In this document: positions 3,293 to 53,131 of the stretch, one piece after another
How positions within the stretch are numbered: position 1 is the stretch's first letter
Layout of the letters: every line of letters begins with the position of its first letter
Translations under genes and position numbers: made by a program
The notes under the pieces: model-generated
What the model was told of the DNA's origin: nothing
Databases searched by the model: none
What the model saw: only the letters and a program-made list of their open reading frames with translations
Assembly: GCA_002494205.1 (NCBI GenBank)
Contig: DLBE01000043.1
Location: 15,893 to 79,892 of the forward strand
Direction: 5' to 3'
Length of the DNA: 64,000 nucleotides
Source: Bacillales bacterium UBA7029
GTDB lineage: Bacteria > Bacillota_I > Bacilli_A > RFN20 > CAG-826

Positions 3293-4717
3293 TTAGATTG
3301 AGAACAATAAAGCCGCAATTGAGAAATAAATAACTAAGCTAGAAACATCAACAATAGTTGTTAATAGTGGTTGAGAAACAATTGCTGGGTCTTTCTTAAT
3401 TGCAGCGGCACCCATAGGAAGTACAACAGCAACCATTTTTGACAAGAAAATGGCAATTGATAAAGTTCCTGCGACTAAGCCTGAAGTTTTGAATGTTTTA
3501 ATAGCAAAATCAGCAGTCCAACAGTTGCCAGCCCAAATTGATGCGTTGTCTATACTAACAATGCCTGTGTATTGTTCTAATGAGAACCAAATAAACCCAA
3601 AAACACCAATAAATAAGGCGATAATTAAGGCAGATAAAGCCTCTTTTCTAATAATTTTCCAAAACTCTTTTGGACTAAATTCTTGCAAAGCAAGACCACG
3701 AATCATAAGAGCGATTGTTTGGCCGCCTGCATTTCCGCCGGTATCCATAATAACTGGGATGAATGCAGCTAAAATCGGAAGGGCGTTTAATCGAGCTTCA
3801 AATCGTGATAAGACCAATGAGGAAAATGTTCCTAAAATAAGTAAAACAATAATCCAAGGAACACATTTTTTAACCATCGAAAAAGTGGATGTTTGAAGGT
3901 ACGAATCTTCTAATGGAGTAACCATTTGTAACTTGGAAATATCTTCTGTTTGTTCTTCTTCAATAACGTCCATAACATCGTCGACAGTAACGATGCCAAC
4001 AAGACGTCCATCATTATTTAAAACAGCGACAGCATTTAAGTCATAACGTTTAACAACGTTAGCAACATCTTCTTGGTCATCATTTACATTGACTGTGTTA
4101 AAGTCTTTATTCATGATCTCAGTTATAGGTTTTTCGCCATCTGCAAAAATCAAATCGTCTAAGTCAACAGTACCAACTAAATTACGTTGTCTGTCCATAA
4201 CGAAAACGGTATAAATTGTTTCTTTATTTTTACCAGTTTTACGGATAAGTCGAATTGCCTCATCACAAGTAACATCGTCTAACAAGACGACGAACTCGGT
4301 GGTCATAATGGAACCCGCGGAGTCCTCTTTGTAGTTTAAAAGACGATTAATACTAGCGCGTTTTTCTTTTGGAACGTTACGTAAAACACGACTGACAACG
4401 TTAGCAGGTAATTCTTCAAGATCATCAACGATATCGTCTGTAAATTGAGATTCAAGAATCTCAGATAGTTGGTCATCAGAAAGACATTTGATGACTTCTT
4501 CTTTAACTTCAGCAGGTAAATCTGTGAAGAATTCAGCAGTGTATTCTGATTTTACTGTCTTCAAAATGAAGACAATTTTCTTAACATCTTCTAAGTCAGC
4601 ACATGCTTCAGCAATATCAATTTCAGGGACAACCTCAAAAACATGTCTAAGTTCTTTGACATTTTTGGAATCAATTAATTTTTCAATTTGTTCAGTTGAA
4701 ATTAACTCATTTTCCAT
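3293..4717 (-). CDS. mgtE: magnesium transporter MgtE
   Basis: 474 aa; N-terminal MgtE-N domain, tandem CBS region and a C-terminal TM domain with the PVIMDTGGNAGGQT signature. Confidence 0.9.
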   Translation of the reverse strand: MENELISTEQIEKLIDSKNVKELRHVFEVVPEIDIAEACADLEDVKKIVFILKTVKSEYTAEFFTDLPAEVKEEVIKCLSDDQLSEILESQFTDDIVDDLEELPANVVSRVLRNVPKEKRASINRLLNYKEDSAGSIMTTEFVVLLDDVTCDEAIRLIRKTGKNKETIYTVFVMDRQRNLVGTVDLDDLIFADGEKPITEIMNKDFNTVNVNDDQEDVANVVKRYDLNAVAVLNNDGRLVGIVTVDDVMDVIEEEQTEDISKLQMVTPLEDSYLQTSTFSMVKKCVPWIIVLLILGTFSSLVLSRFEARLNALPILAAFIPVIMDTGGNAGGQTIALMIRGLALQEFSPKEFWKIIRKEALSALIIALFIGVFGFIWFSLEQYTGIVSIDNASIWAGNCWTADFAIKTFKTSGLVAGTLSIAIFLSKMVAVVLPMGAAAIKKDPAIVSQPLLTTIVDVSSLVIYFSIAALLFSI

Positions 4718-4821
4718 TTTTGATGCCTCCCTTCCGTGTTAGTTTACATTCTTTAAATAAAGAAATAAAGCAAAAACGAAATAATAGTGATACAATACTT
4801 TCGCAAAGGATATACAAGTAT

Positions 4822-5394
4822 ATGAAGAAATTTATAGTTGAAACAAGCGCAAGACACATTCACGTAACTGAAGAAGCTTTAGAAAAACTATGTGGAAAAG
4901 GCGCTAAATTAGAAGTAAAAGCGATGCTTTCACAACCAGGACAATTCTGTTCTACAACAAAATTAAGTATTGTTGGTCCAAAAAACACAATTAACGGTGT
5001 TTCTATTCTTGGTCCATGTAGAAAAGCAAACCAAGTTGAAATATCGGCAACTGATGCAAGAACACTTGGATTACCAGCAGTCGTAAGAGAATCAGGTGAT
5101 ATCGCAGGTACTCCTGGAGTTAAAATCGTTGGACCTTGTGGAGAAATCGAATTATCTGAAGGTTTAATTGTTGCAAAACGTCACATTCACATGACTCCTG
5201 CAGACGCTAAAGAATTTGGCGTTGAGAATGGTCAAATCGTAAAAGTCGCTACTGGAAACGAAGGACGTAAGGTCATTTTTGATGATGTCGTTATCCGTGT
5301 TCGCGAAGATTTCGCACTTGCCATGCACATTGATACAGATGAATCAAACGCTGGTTTATGTGGAATGAAATGTGAAGGCGAAATTGTAAAATAA
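4822..5394 (+). CDS. pduL: PduL/EutD-type phosphate acyltransferase (phosphotransacetylase-like)
   Basis: Internal ATG of ORF 4696-5394. MKKFIVETSARHIHVTEEA...VAKRHIHMTPADAKEFGV shows the duplicated PduL half-domains. Confidence 0.75.
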   Translation: MKKFIVETSARHIHVTEEALEKLCGKGAKLEVKAMLSQPGQFCSTTKLSIVGPKNTINGVSILGPCRKANQVEISATDARTLGLPAVVRESGDIAGTPGVKIVGPCGEIELSEGLIVAKRHIHMTPADAKEFGVENGQIVKVATGNEGRKVIFDDVVIRVREDFALAMHIDTDESNAGLCGMKCEGEIVK

Positions 5395-7683: not shown

Positions 7684-8541
7684 ATGAATAATTATACAGC
7701 CGCTATTGCAAGTTTCATTAGATTCGATGTTGTAGTTTTTAACACCCTTGAATATGCAATGAAAAAAGATAGTTACGATATCAATGCTTACAAAGCACGT
7801 AAAGAAATTATTACAAACGAAATTACTCAAAACACACCACTTAAGAACTGTTGTGAACATTCAGAGGAAGCTGGTAAAAATCTTCTCGCTAAGATTCAAG
7901 AACTTCTTGATACCATCTATTCTGAAAATTCAACAATTGTAAAACTTTCACAAGATGGTAATGAACTTAGAGTTGATTATTCTCAAGCTATTACAATCTT
8001 CGAAACAGTTATGCCAATTCACGAAGAAGTTCGTAAAATTGTTGCAGCTCACGTTAATGCTGCTAAGAGCAAAGATCAATATGATGAGCCAACTTATCCA
8101 GAAGTTATCGATTCAGAAGAATACTTCTATCGTGGACTTGTTAATATGTTGATGCTTGAAGAACTCGATCATCAATTTGCTGAATATAATAAAGCAAGAC
8201 AAGAAGCAAAAGGTGGAATTACTGCTCAATCAAACTTCATTCAAAATGATATTAATCGTTTAGTTAAATTATTCCATTTCTCTAGGGAGAATGCTCAAGC
8301 TAAGAGTGCTGAATATTATGAAGTTATTGACCCATTATTTGCTCTTATTGAAATGACTGGTGGTCGTAGAGATCTTCCTGCAGGCAAAAACTTCGGTGAT
8401 GTATTTATTGAAGTTAAGAAAATTGCTCGTGAGAAAACTGCTAAATGGGAAAATAAATGGAAAGAAGTTTATGAACCATTTATGCAACACTTCACTGAAG
8501 AAATTCAAAAGATGCAAGCTGGTCAAGGAGCAAAGGCTTAA
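7684..8541 (+). CDS. hypothetical protein
   Basis: 285-aa ORF with SD AAAGGA upstream. No recognisable domain; uniform codon usage. Confidence 0.5.
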   Translation: MNNYTAAIASFIRFDVVVFNTLEYAMKKDSYDINAYKARKEIITNEITQNTPLKNCCEHSEEAGKNLLAKIQELLDTIYSENSTIVKLSQDGNELRVDYSQAITIFETVMPIHEEVRKIVAAHVNAAKSKDQYDEPTYPEVIDSEEYFYRGLVNMLMLEELDHQFAEYNKARQEAKGGITAQSNFIQNDINRLVKLFHFSRENAQAKSAEYYEVIDPLFALIEMTGGRRDLPAGKNFGDVFIEVKKIAREKTAKWENKWKEVYEPFMQHFTEEIQKMQAGQGAKA

Positions 8542-8547
8542 TATTTT

Positions 8548-8922
8548 ATGAAGAAAGTTACTACTAAAGAATTTATTTGGTATCTAGGTGCCGGTTTCCT
8601 TGTCTTCCTAGGATTAATTGCAGTTATCTTTGGAATTATTGGTTATCACGTTACCGGACCAGCTGAACAAAACTTTATTCAAAAGTTTGAAGAAGCAATT
8701 CACTTTGAACTCAGATTCTTAGGTTTAATCTTTATTGGCGCTGGCGTTGTCTTAGCAATCTGTGTCTTAGTATTCAATGCTAAAAAAGCCGATAGAGAGG
8801 TTGAAAAGAAGATTCGTAGAGAACAACGTATTGCTGCCCAAAGCAATAAAACTATTGAAGTTAAAAACGCTGTCGAAATCATTGAAGAAGCTCCAAAAGC
8901 CGAAGAAGTCGAAGCTAAATAA
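8548..8922 (+). CDS. small membrane protein (2 TM) with charged C-terminal tail
   Basis: 124 aa; two hydrophobic segments followed by a KE-rich tail. Immediately follows the previous gene. Confidence 0.5.
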   Translation: MKKVTTKEFIWYLGAGFLVFLGLIAVIFGIIGYHVTGPAEQNFIQKFEEAIHFELRFLGLIFIGAGVVLAICVLVFNAKKADREVEKKIRREQRIAAQSNKTIEVKNAVEIIEEAPKAEEVEAK

Positions 8923-8938: not shown

Positions 8939-8966
8939 AGGTGTGCAAAGTTGCACACCTTTTTAG
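8939..8966. terminator. bidirectional intrinsic terminator
   Basis: aggtgtgcaa-ag-ttgcacacct perfect 10-bp palindrome with T/A runs on both sides, between convergent genes. Confidence 0.75.
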
Positions 8967-9724
8967 TTGTAAGGCCAGCCCTTTAAACCAACATCACACA
9001 GTATTGCGGAATAGCCACTTGAACCATTTGCAATGTAGTTGTTCCACTTTAATATAAAGTGTGTAGCAGTTGGTTGAGTTATATAAATCTGTTTAACATA
9101 AGGTGAATTATTATTTGGGATATTTGATTTTGTTATTTCAATGTTTTGAGTCTCAAGTAAAGTTGAATTTGAATCATAACTTTCTAATTTAAATTGCGGT
9201 TGATTTGCTGTCGCACTATAACTACTTGATGTATGACTACTAAACCAGAATGTGAATCTACATTCAATTTTTGTCCAAGAATTAAATAAAGGCGAAATTA
9301 TTTGGCAGTTTTTAACAAATTCAACTCCTGAATATGAACTATTTTCAGATGGGTTTTGCCATAGACGTCCATTTGGATTTTTTGATGATCCATAATAGAA
9401 AGTCCAATAATCGTTATAAACAGGTTCATTTCCTTCATGAAACGAAAAATTCTCCCAATTTTCCAGCGAAAATGGGGTATTTTCAGTTTCGTCGGTATCA
9501 TCTACTTGGGTGTTGGAACCAGTGTTATCGTCGTTTGTATTTGTATTAGAACCAGTATTGTCGTCTGTTGTAGTGCTGTGGTTTTCTTGATTGTCATCAC
9601 TTTCTTCTTTTTCATTTACTTGAGTTTGGTCAGTGTTTTCTTTTTTAAGGCCAACCATTGAAAGAAGATCGCATGATGAGAGAGCGAATACAGATAGAAT
9701 CAATAACAAACTTTTTCTATGCAT
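8963..9724 (-). CDS. lipoprotein, hypothetical (acidic repetitive linker plus aromatic-rich domain)
   Basis: MHRKSLLLILSVFALSSC lipobox; a D/N/T-rich linker with 11-aa tandem repeats DDNTGSNT; C-terminal W/Y/F-rich domain. Confidence 0.6.
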   Translation of the reverse strand: MHRKSLLLILSVFALSSCDLLSMVGLKKENTDQTQVNEKEESDDNQENHSTTTDDNTGSNTNTNDDNTGSNTQVDDTDETENTPFSLENWENFSFHEGNEPVYNDYWTFYYGSSKNPNGRLWQNPSENSSYSGVEFVKNCQIISPLFNSWTKIECRFTFWFSSHTSSSYSATANQPQFKLESYDSNSTLLETQNIEITKSNIPNNNSPYVKQIYITQPTATHFILKWNNYIANGSSGYSAILCDVGLKGWPYN

Positions 9725-9843
9725 GCTTTAATTTTACCAAATTTTTGCGAGTTTGTTCAGTAATTTGTAATATGCAAGTTCTGCACTTTTTCTTTACATT
9801 TTAATTAAATAATATACTATGTATACATGAGTGAGGTGAAATT

Positions 9844-11037
9844 ATGACATTAAAAGAAACTCGCAAAAATTGCAAATTAACCCAAGAAGAAGCAGCAAAA
9901 GTTGTTGGAACTTCTTTAAGAACATATGTTACATATGAAAAAGATGAATCTAAAGCTGATCATTTAAAACTAACTAGAATGATTGAAATTTTAAATGAGT
10001 ACGCAGCAAAAGATACATCAATTTTAAAAGATAAAGTTTTATTAATAACTGGAGGTACTGGTTCTTTTGGCCACGCCGTTGTTGATAGATTCTTAAATAC
10101 TGATATTAAAGAAATAAGAATATTATCGCGCGATGAAAAGAAACAAGATGATATGCGAAAAGCATATAATAACGAAAAACTTAAATTCTATATTGGCGAT
10201 GTCCGTAATCTAAGCAGTATCATTGATGCTTTCAAGGGAGTTGATTATGTTTTTAGCGCTGCTGCATTAAAACAAGTTCCTTCATGTGAATTTTTTCCAA
10301 TGGAAGCAGTTAGAACTAATGTAATTGGTTCAGATAATGTCATTACCGCTTGTGTACAAAACCATGTAAAGAAAGCTATTTTCTTATCTACAGATAAAGC
10401 CGCTTATCCAATTAACGCAATGGGTATTTCAAAAGCACTTATGGAGAAGAATGTTATTGCTCGTTCAAGACAACTTCTTAAAGATGACACCGTGCTTTGT
10501 TTAACTCGTTATGGAAACGTTATGGCTTCTAGAGGTTCTGTTATTCCTCTATTCTTACAACAAATTCATGATGGAAAGCCTATAACTATTACAAATCCAG
10601 AAATGACTAGATTTATGATGACTCTTGATGACGCAGTCGATTTAGTTTTATACGCATTTGAACATGGTGAACAAGGTGACTTATTTGTCCAAAAGGCACC
10701 AGCTGCTACAATTGAAACATTAGCTAAAGCAGTTATAAATTTGACAAAGTCAAAAACTGGTATTTCTTATATCGGAACCCGTCATGGAGAAAAACTGTAC
10801 GAAACACTAGTTACTCAAGAAGAAATGCTTCGCGCTGAAGATATGGGAAATTTCTTTAGGGTTGCTGCCGATAATAGAAATCTTAACTATGATAAATATT
10901 TCACTAAAGGTAATAAGAAGTTAAACCTTGGTGAATCTTATACTTCACACAACACAGGCAGACTCGATGTTGCTGGAATGGAAAAACTTTTAAAGAAGTT
11001 AGAATTATTTGGTGGACCGGTTAGACAACATGAATAA
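9844..11037 (+). CDS. UDP-GlcNAc 4,6-dehydratase/5-epimerase (CapE/FnlA-like) with N-terminal XRE-type HTH extension
   Basis: Strong SD GAGGTGA 5 nt before ATG 9844. Residues 1-45 read KLTQEEAAKVVGTSLRTYVTYEKDESK (HTH_3-like). The rest, KVLLITGGTGSFGHAVVDRFLNTDIKEIRILSRDEKKQDDMRKAYNNEKLKFYIGDVRN..., matches CapE/FnlA. Confidence 0.8.
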   Translation: MTLKETRKNCKLTQEEAAKVVGTSLRTYVTYEKDESKADHLKLTRMIEILNEYAAKDTSILKDKVLLITGGTGSFGHAVVDRFLNTDIKEIRILSRDEKKQDDMRKAYNNEKLKFYIGDVRNLSSIIDAFKGVDYVFSAAALKQVPSCEFFPMEAVRTNVIGSDNVITACVQNHVKKAIFLSTDKAAYPINAMGISKALMEKNVIARSRQLLKDDTVLCLTRYGNVMASRGSVIPLFLQQIHDGKPITITNPEMTRFMMTLDDAVDLVLYAFEHGEQGDLFVQKAPAATIETLAKAVINLTKSKTGISYIGTRHGEKLYETLVTQEEMLRAEDMGNFFRVAADNRNLNYDKYFTKGNKKLNLGESYTSHNTGRLDVAGMEKLLKKLELFGGPVRQHE

Positions 11038-12133
11038 AATCCTTGTTACAGGTGCAAATGGTTTTATTGGAAAACACATGACCAAAGCTTTAAAAAAAGC
11101 AGGCTATGAAGTTTTTGAGTACGATTTAGATAAAACCGAAGACGATTTAAAAGCCTATATTAAGGAAGCAGATTTTGTTATCCATTTAGCAGGAATTAAT
11201 AGACCTTTAACTACTGAAGAGTTTTATAATGGAAATACAAATTTTACTAAAAAACTAGTGGATTTCCTGAAAATTTCTGGGAAAAACATCCCTATTTTGA
11301 TGTCTAGTTCTACTCAAGCTGCTCTTGATAACGACTATGGAAAATCAAAAAAAATGGGGGAGGATTATTTATTTGAATCAAACCTTCCTGTATATGTTTT
11401 TAGACTAGCCAATGTGTTCGGAAAATGGTGCAGACCAAATTACAATAGTGCTGCTGCAACATTTATGTACAACATTGCTCATGATCTTCCAATTGAGATA
11501 AGAGACCCAAATTATATTGTTCATTATAATTACATTTCTGATATAATTGATACATTTATAAAATGTATAAGTGGACATATTAAACCCTCTAAAACTATTT
11601 TGTCAGTTGTTCCAATTTATGATTGTTCGCTTGGAAATTTAGCCTCAACATTAAAGCGCTTTAAAAACTCTGTGGAGAGTGATGAACATTTGCCTGATAT
11701 CAACTCAGATTTCGAATATAAATTATTCATTTCCTTTTTAGATTATTTAAAAGATGATGCGTATAGTTATAACTTTGCAGAAGATCAAAGAGGATCGTTT
11801 GAAGAAGTGTATAAAAATGCAAAATATGGACAAATTTCCATAAATAAATCATTTCCAGGCATTGTAAAAGGTGGGCATTATCACACTTACAAAAATGAAA
11901 TTTTCATGACTGTTCAAGGTCATTGTGTTACTCGCTTAAGAAAAATAGATTCTAAAGAGATTTTAGTTTTTGACCAACATGAACATAAATCTGTGAAAGT
12001 GAAGATTAGTCCAAATTATACACACGACATTAAAAACGTTGGTAATAAAGAATCTGCCACTCTAATGTGGATTTCGGAAGTGTATTCAGATAAGACACCC
12101 GACACGTTTAGAGAAAATGTAGATATTGAATAG
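11030..12133 (+). CDS. CapF/FnlB-like bifunctional reductase/epimerase (N-terminal SDR plus C-terminal cupin)
   Basis: MNKILVTGANGFIGKH Rossmann motif; C-terminal GGHYH cupin motif. 8-nt overlap with the upstream gene. Confidence 0.8.
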   Translation: MNKILVTGANGFIGKHMTKALKKAGYEVFEYDLDKTEDDLKAYIKEADFVIHLAGINRPLTTEEFYNGNTNFTKKLVDFLKISGKNIPILMSSSTQAALDNDYGKSKKMGEDYLFESNLPVYVFRLANVFGKWCRPNYNSAAATFMYNIAHDLPIEIRDPNYIVHYNYISDIIDTFIKCISGHIKPSKTILSVVPIYDCSLGNLASTLKRFKNSVESDEHLPDINSDFEYKLFISFLDYLKDDAYSYNFAEDQRGSFEEVYKNAKYGQISINKSFPGIVKGGHYHTYKNEIFMTVQGHCVTRLRKIDSKEILVFDQHEHKSVKVKISPNYTHDIKNVGNKESATLMWISEVYSDKTPDTFRENVDIE

Positions 12134-12155
12134 GACGTCATCTCGACGTCTTTTT
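12134..12155 (+). terminator. intrinsic terminator between the capF-like and capG-like genes
   Basis: gacgtc-atctc-gacgtc hairpin followed by ttttt; a TATAAT box follows at 12168-12173. Confidence 0.55.
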
Positions 12156-12213
12156 CTTTGCTAGTGCTATAATATTACTTGCTATTATCGCAATTTTGTC
12201 GTATTATTTTGAC

Positions 12214-13539
12214 ATGGAAAAGTTATTAGAATTAAGAAAAAAAATTGGCTTAACGCAAGTTGAAGCCGCAAAAAAACTTGGAGTTTCATTAAGAACATAT
12301 CAAAGATATGAGAATGATGGAACCACAAATGAAAAGCTCTGCAATAAGTTAAAAGATGGCGAATGTGTCAAATTTGTGACAAATGAATTTTTAGGATTTA
12401 AAAATGACGGCAGAATTAAGTTATTAATAATTGTTGGAACACGCCCAGAAATTATTAGGTTAGCCGCCGTCATTAATAAATGCCGCAAATATTTTGACAC
12501 CGTTTTATGCCATACTGGGCAAAACTATGATTACAATCTTAACGGAGTTTTCTTCAAAGATTTAAAAATAAACGATCCTGATGTTTACCTAAATGCAGTT
12601 GGTGCTGACCTTGGTCAAACAATGGGAAACATAATCGCTAAATCATATGAACTTATGGCTGAAATTAAACCAGACGCTGTTCTTGTTTTAGGAGATACAA
12701 ACTCTTGTTTATCAGTCATAGGCGCAAAGCGCCTTCATATTCCCATTTTCCATATGGAAGCTGGAAATAGATGCAAGGATGAATGTCTTCCTGAAGAAAC
12801 AAATAGAAGAATTGTCGACATAATCTCTGATGTCAATTTAGCGTACAGCGAACATGCGAGAAGATACCTCGCCGATTGTGGACTTCCTAAAGAAAGAACA
12901 TATGTAACAGGTTCTCCAATGGCTGAAGTTTTAACTGAAAATCTTAAGGAAATCGAATCAAGTGATATACTTAAAAAACTAAATCTTCAAAAAGGAAAAT
13001 ACATACTTCTTTCTGCTCATAGAGAAGAAAATATTGATACTGAAAAGAACTTCAATTCTTTGTTTAACGCCATTAACTCTATGGCAAAGAAATACGATAT
13101 GCCAATTTTATATTCATGCCATCCTAGAAGTAGAAAAAAACTTCAATCAAGCGGTTTTAAACTCGATCCAAGAGTTGTGATGCATGAACCTTTAGGTTTC
13201 CATGATTATAATAATCTACAAATGAACGCTTTTTGTGTTGTCTCTGATTCAGGAACTTTACCTGAAGAGTCAAGTTTTTATGCTTCAATTAAAAAACCAA
13301 TTGCAGCAGTTTGTATAAGAACATCAACTGAAAGACCAGAGGCTTTAGATGAAGCATGTTTCGTTTTAGCTGGAATTGATGAGAAAAATTTATTACAGGC
13401 TGTTGAAGTTGCAATTAACAATAAAGAAGGCTGTAAACCTGTTGATAATTATGTTGATACAAATGTATCTGATAAAGTTGTAAAACTGATCCAGTCTTAC
13501 GTTGGTGTTGTTAATAAAATGGTGTGGCGAAAAGAATAA
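12214..13539 (+). CDS. UDP-GlcNAc 2-epimerase (CapG/FnlC/WecB-like) with N-terminal XRE-type HTH extension
   Basis: MEKLLELRKKIGLTQVEAAKKLGVSLRTYQRYENDG is HTH_3-like. It is followed by KLLIIVGTRPEIIRLAAV...HMEAGNR...HREEN, the non-hydrolysing 2-epimerase motifs. ATG 12214 is preferred; the track start was TTG at 12196. Confidence 0.8.
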   Translation: MEKLLELRKKIGLTQVEAAKKLGVSLRTYQRYENDGTTNEKLCNKLKDGECVKFVTNEFLGFKNDGRIKLLIIVGTRPEIIRLAAVINKCRKYFDTVLCHTGQNYDYNLNGVFFKDLKINDPDVYLNAVGADLGQTMGNIIAKSYELMAEIKPDAVLVLGDTNSCLSVIGAKRLHIPIFHMEAGNRCKDECLPEETNRRIVDIISDVNLAYSEHARRYLADCGLPKERTYVTGSPMAEVLTENLKEIESSDILKKLNLQKGKYILLSAHREENIDTEKNFNSLFNAINSMAKKYDMPILYSCHPRSRKKLQSSGFKLDPRVVMHEPLGFHDYNNLQMNAFCVVSDSGTLPEESSFYASIKKPIAAVCIRTSTERPEALDEACFVLAGIDEKNLLQAVEVAINNKEGCKPVDNYVDTNVSDKVVKLIQSYVGVVNKMVWRKE

Positions 13540-13603: not shown

Positions 13604-15853
13604 ATGAAAGAAAATCAAGCTGTTCAAGATATTCATTCAAAAAAGAAGAAAAAGAGTCGATTTATTACTCTAATTTTAGTTATATTATTAAACCTCGGAA
13701 TCGTTGGTTTTATTGTAGGTAGAGAATTAACTGCAAACGGTGGTGTTGGTAAGAATAAACTTCAAATTTCTAGCATGCACCCTTGGTTCACTGTTTCAGC
13801 TATTGTTGTCTTTGGTCTTGCTCTTTTCGCTGAATATATGAAGTATCGAAGGATGCTTCTTTCAGGTGCAGGAAGACTCGATCGAAGAGGCGCTTTCCAA
13901 GTTGCTACCTATGGTAAATATGCCGATAATATCACACCTTTAGGTGCAGGAGGTCAACCTTTCCAAATCCACTTCTTGCATAAAAGAGGTTACCCTGGGG
14001 GAGTTTCTACAAGTGTTACAATGAATGGTTTCTTGTCACAACAAGTTGCATTCATTATTATTGCTATTTTAGTCTTAATAATTTCGCCATATACGACAGA
14101 AATTCCTGAATCAGTTTTAGCACTTCGAATCATGGCATACATTGGTTTGGCGTTCTATTCATTTTTCCCGCTTCTTATTGTAGCTTTCGCTCTTTTTCCA
14201 AAACCAATAACTGCCTTAATCATGGCCTTTTTAAAGCTCGGGCATAAAATGCACATAGTCAAAGACTATGAGTCCGCTCATGATAGAGTTTTTGAAGGTA
14301 TAATGGAATATACCGACTTAATCAAACAAGCCATTAGAAGACCAACATTTTTGATTCCAACAATGTTTTGGTCTTTTGTTTATCAAATGTCAATTTTATC
14401 GATTCCTTTCTTCTGCATTAGAGCATTCGGAGGTGAAGGAGATTGGTGGACTATTTTCGCTATAACAGTAAACATTTATCTTGCTATTACCATTATTCCA
14501 ACTCCTGGTAATTCTGGTGTTGCTGAAGGATCATTCTATTTAGTTTTCTCCGCTCTTCCATCAGGCGCATTATTCTGGGCCATGATTTTCTGGAGAGCGT
14601 TAGTATACTATTCTTGGATAGTAATTGGACTTGTGGTTGTTTTACGAACTGCTGTTAAAAATACTTATATGCATAAAAAGGAAGTCCCAGCGGGGCGTCC
14701 ACTTAACATATGCCTAGCATGTGATGCATTTTTCCCTGTAATTGATGGTGTTATTCGAACCATGGATCAATACGCTAGAGAGATGGTTAAAATGGGTCAT
14801 CGTGTCGTAGTTGTTGCGCCAAATCTTAAAGGTGCTGATGATGAAAAACTTCCATATGAAGTATATCGACTACCACAGTTTAAAGTTCCTGGTATCCCGT
14901 TTGAATCAGTGAAACCTTTTATGTCTAGAAAGGTTAAAAAACACCTGGATTCTTATAATTTTGATGTTATTCATATTCACTCACCTATGATCTTAGGAAA
15001 GATGATGCAACGATATGCTAGAAGAAGAAAAATACCTGTTTTTACAACATTCCATTCTAAATATTATGACGACACACTTCACCTAACTCATAGCAAATTG
15101 CTCGCTTCAATTATGGTGAAATATATTCTCCATTTCTATCACCGCGTTGATAGTGTTTGGGCTTGCAGTGCGTCTACTGGCGAAACACTTAGGTCATATG
15201 GATACAACGGCCATATTGGTGTTATGGAAAATGGTGTTGAAAATATGCCAGAAGGAAATATTGAAGAATATAAGAAAGAAGCAATTGCAAACTATAATAT
15301 CCCAACAAACAAAAAGCTTTTCTTATTTGTCGGTCAACAAATTTGGCATAAAAATCTAAAACTTGTTTTAGATACAACCAAAGCTTTATGTGACGAAGAT
15401 GATAGTTATCACACAATTATTGTTGGTGTTGGCTACGATGCAGAAGCAATTAAAAAGTATGCTGAAGAAATAGGTGTAAGTGACAAAGTCACTTTCGTTG
15501 GCAAAATTAGAAGTAGAAAAGCTTTATTTGGTTTATATGAATTATGCGACCTTTTCTTCTTCCCGTCTTTATATGATAATGCCCCATTAGTTGTTAGAGA
15601 GGCTGCTTTGGCATCTTTACCTTCACTACTAGTTAAAGGTTCGACTGCTGCTGAAATTGTTGTTGACGATCAAAATGGTTATTTAGCAGAAAATAATGTT
15701 GAATCAATGTCGCAAAGAATTAAAGAAGCTTTTGCTTCTGGAAGAATGAAAGAAGTTGGAAAGAAAGCCTCAGAAACAATCCCAATTCCTTGGAAAAATA
15801 TTGTTGAACAAGTAATTGACAGATACATTTCTGAATCAAAACATCCTGAATAA
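13604..15853 (+). CDS. fusion of a flippase-like TM domain (LPG-synthase_TM family) and a GT4 glycosyltransferase
   Basis: 749 aa. The N-terminal ~350 aa are polytopic with PTPGNSGVAEGSF, typical of the MprF-type flippase domain. The C-terminal part has the GT4 Rossmann fold with the EX7E motif (PSLYDNAPLVVREAALASLPSLL). Confidence 0.7.
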   Translation: MKENQAVQDIHSKKKKKSRFITLILVILLNLGIVGFIVGRELTANGGVGKNKLQISSMHPWFTVSAIVVFGLALFAEYMKYRRMLLSGAGRLDRRGAFQVATYGKYADNITPLGAGGQPFQIHFLHKRGYPGGVSTSVTMNGFLSQQVAFIIIAILVLIISPYTTEIPESVLALRIMAYIGLAFYSFFPLLIVAFALFPKPITALIMAFLKLGHKMHIVKDYESAHDRVFEGIMEYTDLIKQAIRRPTFLIPTMFWSFVYQMSILSIPFFCIRAFGGEGDWWTIFAITVNIYLAITIIPTPGNSGVAEGSFYLVFSALPSGALFWAMIFWRALVYYSWIVIGLVVVLRTAVKNTYMHKKEVPAGRPLNICLACDAFFPVIDGVIRTMDQYAREMVKMGHRVVVVAPNLKGADDEKLPYEVYRLPQFKVPGIPFESVKPFMSRKVKKHLDSYNFDVIHIHSPMILGKMMQRYARRRKIPVFTTFHSKYYDDTLHLTHSKLLASIMVKYILHFYHRVDSVWACSASTGETLRSYGYNGHIGVMENGVENMPEGNIEEYKKEAIANYNIPTNKKLFLFVGQQIWHKNLKLVLDTTKALCDEDDSYHTIIVGVGYDAEAIKKYAEEIGVSDKVTFVGKIRSRKALFGLYELCDLFFFPSLYDNAPLVVREAALASLPSLLVKGSTAAEIVVDDQNGYLAENNVESMSQRIKEAFASGRMKEVGKKASETIPIPWKNIVEQVIDRYISESKHPE

Positions 15854-52279: not shown

Positions 52280-53131
52280 TTATATTAAAAGAAAAATTAA
52301 AAATAATAAAATAAGATGCGCTGGAAAATAAATATAGCATCCATATTGAAACCATTTTGGATTGTAGCCACGTTTTCCGGAATAAAACAAAATTGGGATA
52401 AATGCAAAAAGTGCATAGAACTGCCATTCTATTCGAGAAAGAACATAAACAGTGTAAGAATCAAAAACCATTATAAGAATAGTTAAAATTATTAATGAAG
52501 TAGCGCTTATAACATTATATGTTATTTGTTCATAGGTGGTGCCAATAAAAACTTTCGTTTCTTCTTTCGAATTGAAGAAGATTTTTGCTAACGAGTGAGA
52601 ATAATAGAAAACAATTCCAAGTAACGGCCCAAAAATCAAATAATCAGGTCTAAGAACAAATGGAATCCAATCAATAGGTTTATGATTTACAAATTCTAAA
52701 TAACGAATAACATAACAAAGAATAACCCATGCAAATGGAAGTATCGCCATCAATGACCACTTATCTTTTCTTTTTAATAAGTAAACAATAGAGGCAGTTA
52801 ATATTAAATCGATTGCTGGAGAATACATTGTTATAGCATTTGTTTTGTCGATTGCGTAAAAAACTAATTGCCCAACCATAAAAGCTCCAGCTAAGATTCC
52901 TAATCTAATAAAGTACTTACCAATGTGTTTTGAATGGATGATTCCTTCAACAAGTAAAAAGATAATTAAAGGGAATGAAAAACGACCCAAAAGTCTAAAA
53001 ATACTAGCGATTTCCTGACAATTTTCAACTTCTTCAAGGAAAAAACCGATATGATCTAGAGTCATGAAAACGATGGCTAATATCTTTAACACAAAGCCAT
53101 CGAGAATATTAAAATGTCTAGTCTTTTCCAT
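52280..53131 (-). CDS. TraX-family membrane protein
   Basis: LKILAIVFMTLDHIGFF resembles the TraX family N-terminus; polytopic. Confidence 0.5.
   Translation of the reverse strand: MEKTRHFNILDGFVLKILAIVFMTLDHIGFFLEEVENCQEIASIFRLLGRFSFPLIIFLLVEGIIHSKHIGKYFIRLGILAGAFMVGQLVFYAIDKTNAITMYSPAIDLILTASIVYLLKRKDKWSLMAILPFAWVILCYVIRYLEFVNHKPIDWIPFVLRPDYLIFGPLLGIVFYYSHSLAKIFFNSKEETKVFIGTTYEQITYNVISATSLIILTILIMVFDSYTVYVLSRIEWQFYALFAFIPILFYSGKRGYNPKWFQYGCYIYFPAHLILLFLIFLLI

Follow-up and report, generated by a model that had tools for sequence, protein, structure and literature searches.

Helix-turn-helix modules fused to UDP-sugar enzymes in uncultured gut Bacilli: candidate self-regulating enzyme/transcription-factor fusions

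Introduction

In the Enterobacterales, NadR joins a helix-turn-helix (HTH) domain to a nicotinamide mononucleotide adenylyltransferase and a ribosylnicotinamide kinase, and it represses genes of its own pathway in response to a pathway nucleotide; the N-terminal HTH is restricted to that lineage, and orthologues elsewhere do without it (PMC12421817). BzdR couples an XRE-type DNA-binding domain to a shikimate-kinase-like domain, and a synthetic chimera of an HTH with shikimate kinase is a working regulator (PMC3602430). In MqsA, residues N97 and R101 read the palindrome TAACCT-N3-AGGTTA of its own promoter (PMC4901048). We describe here a locus of Bacillales bacterium UBA7029 in which two enzymes of a UDP-N-acetyl-L-fucosamine (UDP-L-FucNAc)-type pathway carry related N-terminal HTH modules. 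The window, by which we mean the whole stretch analyzed, comprises 64,000 nucleotides (nt) of contig DLBE01000043.1 (assembly GCA_002494205.1, positions 15,893 to 79,892 of the forward strand), and all coordinates below are positions within it.

We propose, at a probability that we place at roughly 60%, that the fused enzymes are self-regulating enzyme/transcription-factor fusions derived from a portable operator-promoter-HTH cassette, comparable to NadR. This proposal draws on comparative sequence evidence: the conservation of the fusions, the selection acting upon them, and the conserved motifs in their promoters. Our full-text searches, outside whose coverage most subscription journals fall, returned no description of HTH-fused FnlA, CapG, or UDP-glucose dehydrogenase enzymes.

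HTH-enzyme fusions in the locus

Three co-directional genes at 9844-11037, 11030-12133, and 12214-13539 are homologues of FnlA/CapE, CapF, and CapG/FnlC according to the open reading frame (ORF) listing and domain scans. The genes and their parts are as follows.

9844-11037, plus strand: gene 1, an HTH_3-FnlA/CapE fusion of 397 amino acids (aa)
9844-10017, plus strand: XRE/HTH_3 module of gene 1, aa 1-58 (Pfam HTH_3, AlphaFold2 [AF2] model, profile matches)
10018-11037, plus strand: FnlA/CapE-type UDP-N-acetylglucosamine 4,6-dehydratase/5-epimerase domain of gene 1 (Polysacc_synt_2 and Polysacc_syn_2C)
11030-12133, plus strand: gene 2, a CapF/FnlB-type (WbjC) reductase with a C-terminal cupin and without an HTH (Cap5F 2ZKL, 266 bits)
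12214-12411, plus strand: XRE/HTH_3 module and variable linker of gene 3 (Pfam HTH_3, 35.5 bits; AF2 model)
12412-13539, plus strand: CapG/FnlC-type non-hydrolysing UDP-sugar 2-epimerase domain of gene 3 (Epimerase_2, TIGR00236)

Both HTH_3 matches exceed the Pfam cut-off of 23 bits (26.8 bits at aa 3-51 of gene 1; 35.5 bits in gene 3), and the two HTH cores are 59% identical as protein. The AF2 models show four confident helices in each module, with a helix 2-turn-helix 3 arrangement. In gene 1 the predicted helices span residues 3-9, 14-21, 25-33, and 40-56, with SLRTYVTYE as the recognition helix and a predicted local distance difference test score of 83-94; in gene 3 they span residues 4-11, 15-22, 26-34, and 40-47, with SLRTYQRYE as the recognition helix. 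A preliminary description of this DNA was thus right to recognize two genuine, in-frame, N-terminal, and mutually related HTH_3 domains, as well as the absence of any stop codon between HTH and enzyme; neither gene has a Met there. Its Shine-Dalgarno (SD) sequence for gene 1 is confirmed as GAGGTG at 9833-9838. Some of its measurements need revision. The extension of gene 1 is about 58-60 codons long, not 45, and that of gene 3, although present as described, is about 56-66 codons rather than about 70. The reported DNA identity of about 70% between the two modules holds as a similarity (about 75% over 67 aligned columns), but in gene 3 it starts near 12254, not at 12240. Gene 3 most likely begins at ATG 12214 and not at TTG 12196, because its relative L163 (related loci are given here by L numbers) has an in-frame TAA just upstream of the equivalent ATG.

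The modules look like DNA binders. Among solved structures, those closest to them belong to DNA-binding repressors or antitoxins (3MLF, PezA, MqsA, ImmR, and Aca2), and the gene 1 module by itself matches the profiles of the DNA-binding proteins PezA, MqsA, and ImmR. When aligned to MqsA, the invariant R26 (R27 in the epimerase) falls at the MqsA residue N97, and position 30/31 (R31 in the epimerase) falls at R101. We found no further copies of the module in the 64-kb window beyond genes 1 and 3. We considered whether the HTH of gene 3 had recently been copied from that of gene 1 and rejected the idea: the gene 3 module scores 31 bits against FnlA-type HTHs and 31-37 bits against other members of the subfamily.

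The enzyme domains bear out the CapE/CapF/CapG trio of the preliminary description, both in domain content and in their nearest solved relatives, which are FnlA/CapE, Cap5F, and CapG. The gene 1 enzyme has an extended short-chain dehydrogenase/reductase (SDR) fold, with the nucleotide-binding motif TGGTGSFG at aa 69-76, N-terminal in the enzyme domain, and comprises Polysacc_synt_2 at aa 66-340 followed by a Polysacc_syn_2C tail (Pfam scores of 341 and 68.5 bits). Its top solved relatives are FnlA 4J2O (495 bits, query residues 59-389) and CapE 3VVB (442 bits), and it lies nearer to these than to PseB, FlaA1 (2GN4, 221 bits), or CapD; the FnlA and CapE chains in the PDB align with it only from query residue 59-62 onward. 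FnlA equivalog TIGR04130 (NCBIfam) is by far its best family, at 535 bits against a cut-off of 730, and since the score is under that cut-off we call the protein FnlA-type rather than a certified equivalog. Gene 2, the start of which (ATG 11030) overlaps the stop of gene 1 (ATGAATAA), carries an N-terminal SDR Epimerase domain and Polysacc_synt_C (Pfam) and scores 329 bits against NCBIfam NF047837, for which the cut-off is 500. In gene 3, Epimerase_2 (PF02350) scores 278 bits, the wecB equivalog TIGR00236 scores 229 bits, above its cut-off of 210, and the best solved relative is CapG 7YA2 (475 bits, query residues 67-440).

Conservation of the fusions

The HTH-FnlA fusion occurs in more than 120 protein clusters and about 60 sequenced loci. 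Among the best 120 homologue clusters, which share 85-98% identity with the query and all cover it end to end, the HTH that precedes TSILKDKVLLITGGTGSFG is exactly 58 residues long; 107 of the 120 are called at the same start, and the others have longer called N-termini. The module follows the pattern M.LKE.RK.CKLTQ.EA...G..LRTYV.YE, in which R7, Q14, R26, Y31, and E32 are invariant. No internal Met or SD is conserved in these 120 clusters, and the lack of such a Met indicates that the FnlA enzyme is made only as the fusion.

The HTH-epimerase fusion is rarer, with about 29 clusters (P0121-P0149) that share the conserved HTH GLTQ.EAA..LGVSLRTYQRYE and have a linker of variable length. In several of these fusions the ancestral start MSYKGF is still present in frame; it has been lost from the window copy, whose epimerase is thus predicted to be made only as a fusion. 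The next-best epimerase matches are unfused; they are 380-386 aa long, with about 89-90% identity in the enzyme part, and the epimerase is likewise unfused in most HTH-FnlA loci. Because so many close relatives and most HTH-FnlA loci lack it, the epimerase fusion is either younger than the FnlA fusion or more often lost. The preliminary description had suggested looking for the same fusions in related genomes, where both are present, and had held that relatives beginning at the canonical enzyme N-terminus would count against them; such relatives exist in number for gene 3 and not for gene 1, and the objection stands in part for the epimerase alone.

A third enzyme bears the module in some relatives. 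An HTH of the form MNLKELR.SKGLSQKDA...IPLRTYKRLE heads a UDP-glucose/GDP-mannose dehydrogenase-family enzyme adjoining the fnl genes in L113, L118, L128, L133, L139, L161, and L164, and all three fusions are present in each of L161 and L164. In three more loci, L007 (Oscillospiraceae), L021 (Pseudomonas), and L027 (Clostridiaceae), tblastn matches reached far toward the N-terminus, and the loci gave no HTH match at E < 1e-3. The relatives are metagenome-assembled genomes that carry the labels Bacilli, Bacillales, or Erysipelotrichaceae; Candidatus Fiminaster equi is the name of one that has the epimerase fusion. The window itself is identical to contigs of public metagenome assemblies.

Assembly or annotation error, by which a small HTH gene in front of a normal enzyme gene would have been merged with it, has in its favor the disagreement of gene callers over the start of gene 3 (441 versus 447 aa). 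The same in-frame fusion is repeated in hundreds of independent assemblies (ENA, JGI, Logan, and NCBI), and this, together with the missing internal Met and SD, effectively refutes the artefact on present data. A split arrangement of an HTH gene and an enzyme gene was rejected specifically, as the 75-aa members of the epimerase cluster are C-terminal fragments.

Selection also bears on the function of the module. In 44 intact genes from independent assemblies (GTDB genomes and metagenomes), the ratio of nonsynonymous to synonymous substitution rates (dN/dS) is 0.05-0.25 for the HTH codons and 0.02-0.14 for the enzyme; the HTH on FnlA is under purifying selection, though it evolves faster than the enzyme. 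No indels or stops occur in the HTH of these 44 genes, which have diverged to about 60% HTH identity. These values tell against the view that a toxin-antitoxin or phage repressor gene was inserted as a cassette, happened to provide a promoter and a start codon, and left a neutral HTH behind. That view would fit with the patchy distribution of the epimerase HTH among close relatives, with the survival of MSYKGF in frame in several fusions, and with pairs of HTH-MNT and HepT genes inserted into related fnl loci. We nevertheless regard it as very improbable: dN/dS lies well below 1, the key residues are invariant, the fusion recurs on three enzyme families, and the window epimerase, having no ancestral Met, could be made as the fusion only.

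Conserved motifs at the fused promoters

The following elements lie at the 5' end of gene 1.

9772-9786, no strand assigned: O1, an operator-like palindrome ATGCAAGTTCTGCAC, followed by the T-tract TTTTTCTTT (family consensus rTGCAA-N3-TTGCAy)
9793-9820, plus strand: putative promoter of gene 1, TTTACA-16 nt-TACTAT (consensus scan; block conserved in relatives)
9862-9874, no strand assigned: second operator-like site CGCAAAAATTGCA in codons 7-11 (RKNCK) (one-mismatch scan)

O1 is situated six bases upstream of the -35 element. An alignment of 53-58 distinct HTH-FnlA upstream regions, whose neighbors and flanks do not otherwise align, brings out a 15-bp palindrome, rTGCAA-N3-TTGCAy, with TTTTTCTTT after it; the palindrome is centered 61-69 nt (mode 65) before the ATG. 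At least 9 of the 12 consensus positions are matched in 57 of 58 fused upstream regions and in 1 of 73 unfused FnlA loci, the latter drawn mostly from other, distant phyla. The exact core TGCA-N5-TGCA occurs in 38 of 54 fused loci versus 0 of 73 unfused loci, against a background of 0.005 per 150 nt (1.4 Mb of loci). Within the 64-kb window RTGCAN5TGCAY has two exact matches, with 0.26 expected; one is O1, and the other, at 52402, is inside an ORF and has a poor right half.

The intragenic site, 89 bp downstream of O1, coincides with an extreme bias in codon usage. Arg7 is encoded by CGC in 58 of 61 distinct genes, against about 12% of the other Arg codons of the same genes, and Cys10 by TGC in 56 of 61, against 41% elsewhere. 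With near-identical sequences thinned, codon 7 ranks first, by a wide margin, among the synonymous outliers of the 315 codons that could be tested, and codons 10 and 12 are in the top 15. The site in codons 7-11 is probably a second, putative operator. We rejected mRNA structure as the cause of the constraint on codons 7-12, as the fold of 9826-9900 equals that of shuffled sequences (z = 0).

Gene 3 is preceded by two further elements.

12132-12159, plus strand: terminator-like hairpin GACGTC-atctc-GACGTC with a T-run, directly 3' of the gene 2 stop (terminator scan)
12179-12213, plus strand: gene 3 promoter TTGCTA-17 nt-TATTAT (consensus scan and conservation)

The hairpin was considered as the operator of the epimerase and rejected: equivalent hairpins in other HTH-epimerase loci have unrelated stems, and it is thus best taken as an ordinary terminator of gene 2. 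What the HTH-epimerase loci do share is a block TTTGTCGTATTAT..ATG. In 13 of 13 of these loci TGTC(G/A)T starts 17 nt before the ATG, with TGTCGT itself in 12 of 13 where 0.5 would be expected; extra TGTCGT-type copies occur in both orientations, and L162, L163, L164, L166, and L168 have full palindromes (e.g., ACGACA-tt-TGTCGT, TGTCGTAatattATGACA). In the window the half-site TGTCGTA (12197-12203) overlaps the -10 element of gene 3, within TGTCGTATTAT at 12197-12207. Gene 3 has no SD, and its ATG comes 6 nt after the conserved TATTAT; its mRNA is probably leaderless, which, if so, explains the missing SD. The HTH-dehydrogenase fusions have a motif of their own, GTGCCA-N3-TGGCAC with a T-run, which overlaps the -35 position. 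Because these sites overlap a -10 or a -35 element, repression is suggested for both the epimerase and the dehydrogenase. Each of the fused genes is the first of a transcription unit of its own: a terminator and a promoter precede gene 3, whereas unfused epimerases abut the preceding gene. Positions 29-30 of the recognition helix change together with the motif: they are V-x in the FnlA, K-R in the dehydrogenase, and Q-R in the epimerase fusions. The class-specific conservation of these promoter motifs is, like the fusions, their conservation, and the purifying selection, directly observed. Rfam holds no known RNA element that matches the intergenic regions.

The palindromes might have another function altogether, as terminators, insulators, or sites for some other regulator, with a functional HTH that binds elsewhere. 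A 6-bp hairpin is possible, the FnlA- and dehydrogenase-type palindromes are each followed by a T-run, and the hairpin before gene 3 is indeed an ordinary terminator. Arm positions 2-5, on the other hand, are essentially invariant and show no compensatory changes over 57 sites, whereas genuine terminators of neighboring genes vary and have unrelated stems; invariance without covariation points to constraint on the sequence itself, as for a protein site. The gene upstream of O1 in the window is divergent, so that no plus-strand transcript arrives there to be terminated, and a terminator would be harmful inside coding sequence, where the second copy lies. The motif is specific to the gene 1 promoter in 64 kb, and three HTH classes are paired with three motifs in the same genomes, L161 and L164. 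We consider this the foremost of the alternatives and still an unlikely one.

Several other sites in these regions deserve a record. A perfect 10-bp palindrome, ATGTATACAT, occupies 9819-9828, with the putative -10 element of gene 1 on one side and its SD on the other, and similar AT-rich palindromes are found in relatives, e.g., ATACTATAGTAT in L001; the window palindrome might act as an additional site of control or simply belong to the promoter/start-site sequence. In L129, at about 2921-2935, a second FnlA-type palindrome with a partial flank (GAAAAAGTGCAGTAATTGCATTTT) is found 2 kb upstream of the fnlA copy and before a gene for a secreted or membrane protein, where it could reflect a partly duplicated control region or mark a second regulon member. 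L152 (about 800-860) and L156 (about 460-520) have three tandem copies of AAGTGCCATCC and then GTGCAA(A/T)NTTTGCAC, matching the FnlA-type operator consensus; the distance to the downstream gene, which encodes an unrelated protein of about 220 aa with RKNCKLTQ in its C-terminal HTH, is about 200 nt in L152 and about 1 kb in L156. An extended -10-like element, TGCTATAAT, at 12165-12173 precedes the conserved TATTAT of the gene 3 promoter by 30 nt and could represent a second promoter or a chance match. Between fnlB and the HTH-epimerase promoter of L164 (about 4700-4960), a GC-rich insert of about 200 nt in AT-rich surroundings ends in a terminator-like hairpin and has no Rfam match.

The wider HTH subfamily

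An exhaustive profile search of 1.84 billion representatives returned 8926 matches, of which 385 lay below 1e-10. Among the strongest of these, this HTH subtype stands N-terminal on MNT-type nucleotidyltransferases of about 155 aa (antitoxins of HEPN/MNT systems), on a transketolase N-terminal subunit, and on a divergent FnlA-like protein. MNT/HepT pairs also occur in related loci, at 1913-2807 of L166, between fnlA and fnlB, where the MNT protein bears an HTH head, and at 6455-7248 of L161, downstream of the fnl genes. With HTH-MNT/HepT pairs inside or beside fnl loci, antitoxin genes are a plausible source of the cassette. The window proteins are themselves no HTH-MNT antitoxins: neither has an NTP_transf_2 or Polbeta domain, the next gene encodes a glycosyltransferase, and the HTH subtype alone is shared. 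A separate group of proteins of 380-1000 aa (P0241-P0250) carries 5-11 tandem copies of this HTH subtype, P0241 having 11 HTH_3 repeats in 1002 aa.

An HTH of this type could also serve in contacts between proteins, assembling the pathway enzymes into a complex, docking them to the membrane glycosyltransferase, or localizing them in some other way. There is precedent in RodZ, whose XRE-type HTH binds MreB. Related modules sit on the first and the last of the soluble pathway enzymes, several enzymes of a single metabolic area bear the module, and it is under selection while evolving faster than the enzymes, all of which would suit such a role. The conserved residues of the HTH are the DNA-facing ones, though (Q14, R26, T27, and Y31); in most loci FnlA alone is tagged, which leaves it no tagged partner to pair with; the class-specific palindromes would go unexplained; and the occurrence of the same subtype on MNT antitoxins fits autoregulatory DNA binding. 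An interaction module therefore seems improbable to us, slightly more so than another function of the palindromes.

Proposed mechanism

In the mechanism that we favor, the UDP-L-FucNAc-type pathway locus would be split into two transcription units, each headed by an HTH-enzyme whose enzyme part stays catalytic. The enzyme body would supply the oligomerization that a 58-residue HTH needs in order to bind a palindrome, and a pair of HTHs would then bind an operator at the promoter of its own gene. HTH-FnlA would act on the 6-N3-6 palindrome rTGCAA-N3-TTGCAy (9772-9786) and probably also on the intragenic copy (9862-9874), and HTH-epimerase on TGTCGTA-type sites over its own -10 element and transcription start. 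The level of each enzyme would thereby set its own transcription, an autoregulation of each unit, and DNA binding may respond, as it does in NadR, to whether a UDP-sugar or cofactor is bound. The cassette, whose HTH subtype is that of MNT antitoxins, would also have been placed before a UDP-glucose dehydrogenase-family gene in relatives. We infer the DNA binding, the sign of regulation, the ligand response, and the retained catalysis.

The preliminary description had left two readings of the HTH segments side by side, a device for feedback from metabolite to gene and a remnant of an inserted cassette. The regulatory reading, in which feedback from the metabolite itself may be a further element, gains from the purifying selection, from the DNA-contact residues that align with those of MqsA, and from the class-specific palindromes. 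The cassette gains as an origin, since the module comes with promoter and operator and MNT antitoxins lie in related loci, but not as a non-functional remnant, which the purifying selection contradicts.

A number of observations weigh against our proposal. The FnlA and CapF domains, two of the three enzymes, score under the NCBIfam equivalog cut-offs. Many bacteria with an epimerase about 90% identical do without the HTH, so the HTH is dispensable for the pathway. Because the unfused controls come mostly from other phyla, the contrast of 57 of 58 with 1 of 73 is confounded with lineage, and the P-values for codon bias ignore shared ancestry, though the ranking of the outliers is independent of them. 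The FnlA and dehydrogenase palindromes, each with its T-run, resemble small terminators or insulators too. The window O1 is degenerate, with CTGCAC in place of TTGCAC, and the window epimerase promoter has one clear half-site with weak partners only. O1 is centered near -48, so that activation and repression cannot be told apart for FnlA. Promoter-like matches are no more frequent in the region than in shuffled sequence, and the promoter calls thus rest on consensus and conservation. Every step from a motif to an operator of this HTH is one that we infer from sequence.

By weight, the alternatives rank with another function of the palindromes first, followed by the interaction module, the neutral remnant, and the artefact; neither of the last two agrees well with the selection data and the many independent assemblies. 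We also entertain, as a more speculative extension that we think less likely to hold than to fail, that a cassette probably taken from the HTH of a toxin-antitoxin antitoxin has repeatedly made nucleotide-sugar enzymes (FnlA, FnlC, the UDP-glucose dehydrogenase-family enzyme, and possibly a transketolase subunit) self-regulating. The oligomer, expected to be a hexamer for FnlA and to carry several HTH pairs, could then bridge the upstream and intragenic operators while a UDP-sugar or cofactor tunes binding, and the supply of surface-glycan precursor would feed back on transcription without a separate regulator.

Neighboring genes

One further gene completes the unit.

13604-15853, plus strand: downstream gene, an LPG_synthase_TM and glycosyltransferase family 4 (GT4) fusion of 749 aa (Pfam families of the identical gene in L081)

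This gene (LPG_synthase_TM being MprF flippase-like) lies directly 3' of the fnl genes in the window; in L165 it is located between fnlB and the HTH-epimerase gene. The protein is likely the user of the UDP-sugar, and the fusion may accomplish both glycosylation and translocation of a lipid-linked L-FucNAc product. The enzyme trio and this membrane-domain/GT4 gene would therefore make up a minimal four-gene unit for an L-FucNAc-type glycoconjugate. On the other side, the divergent gene at 8963-9724 (minus strand) encodes a protein of 253 aa with a lipoprotein-type signal peptide (LSVFALSSC) and a long, low-complexity linker rich in D, N, and T. For this gene and those at 7684-8541 and 8548-8922, no Pfam family is on record for the identical genes in L081.

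Significance

The fusions may bear on how the synthesis of surface-polysaccharide precursors is regulated in uncultured, small-genome gut Bacilli. The public names of these proteins omit the DNA-binding domain (HBF67712.1 is a "UDP-glucose 4-epimerase" and MCQ2801588.1 a "UDP-N-acetylglucosamine 2-epimerase"). If the fused enzymes are autoregulators, they would be among the simplest conceivable one-component circuits, in which an enzyme is its own repressor or activator, and they would provide a natural example of a proposed step in the evolution of regulators from enzymes, with the enzyme still active. Three enzyme families with three cognate operators that differ by 1-2 bases, and with matching changes in the recognition helix, would be a data set for the rules of HTH specificity; the same set could furnish synthetic biology with compact, orthogonal, self-limiting expression cassettes.

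Comparison with known systems

The gene set of the locus is that of FnlA-FnlB-FnlC and CapE-CapF-CapG, which all three enzyme domains find as their best solved relatives. The characterized FnlA and CapG enzymes lack an HTH, and their PDB chains align only from query residue 59 or 67. The characterized trio belongs to a large capsule or O-antigen cluster, whereas here it sits in a minimal four-gene locus with the membrane-domain/GT4 fusion.

By sequence, the closest relatives of the HTH are the XRE-type autorepressors MqsA, PezA, and the HTH-MNT antitoxins; the base-contact residues of MqsA align with R26/27 and position 30/31, and the MqsA palindrome shares the 6-N3-6 geometry of the FnlA-type palindrome. 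Unlike these antitoxins, the window proteins have no toxin partner or MNT domain, and what follows the HTH in them is a biosynthetic enzyme. The enzyme domain of BzdR is no longer catalytic and is a sensor only; the fused enzymes of this locus are about 90% identical to unfused ones and are the only copies in the operon, and they should therefore stay catalytic. The likeness to NadR and other "trigger enzymes" is closest in architecture, an N-terminal HTH on a nucleotide-handling enzyme that is otherwise widespread without it. Unlike NadR, the enzymes here are those of nucleotide sugars and surface glycans and not of NAD, the module is found on three enzymes, each with its own putative operator, and both the DNA binding and the control by a ligand are those that the NadR-like arrangement would predict.

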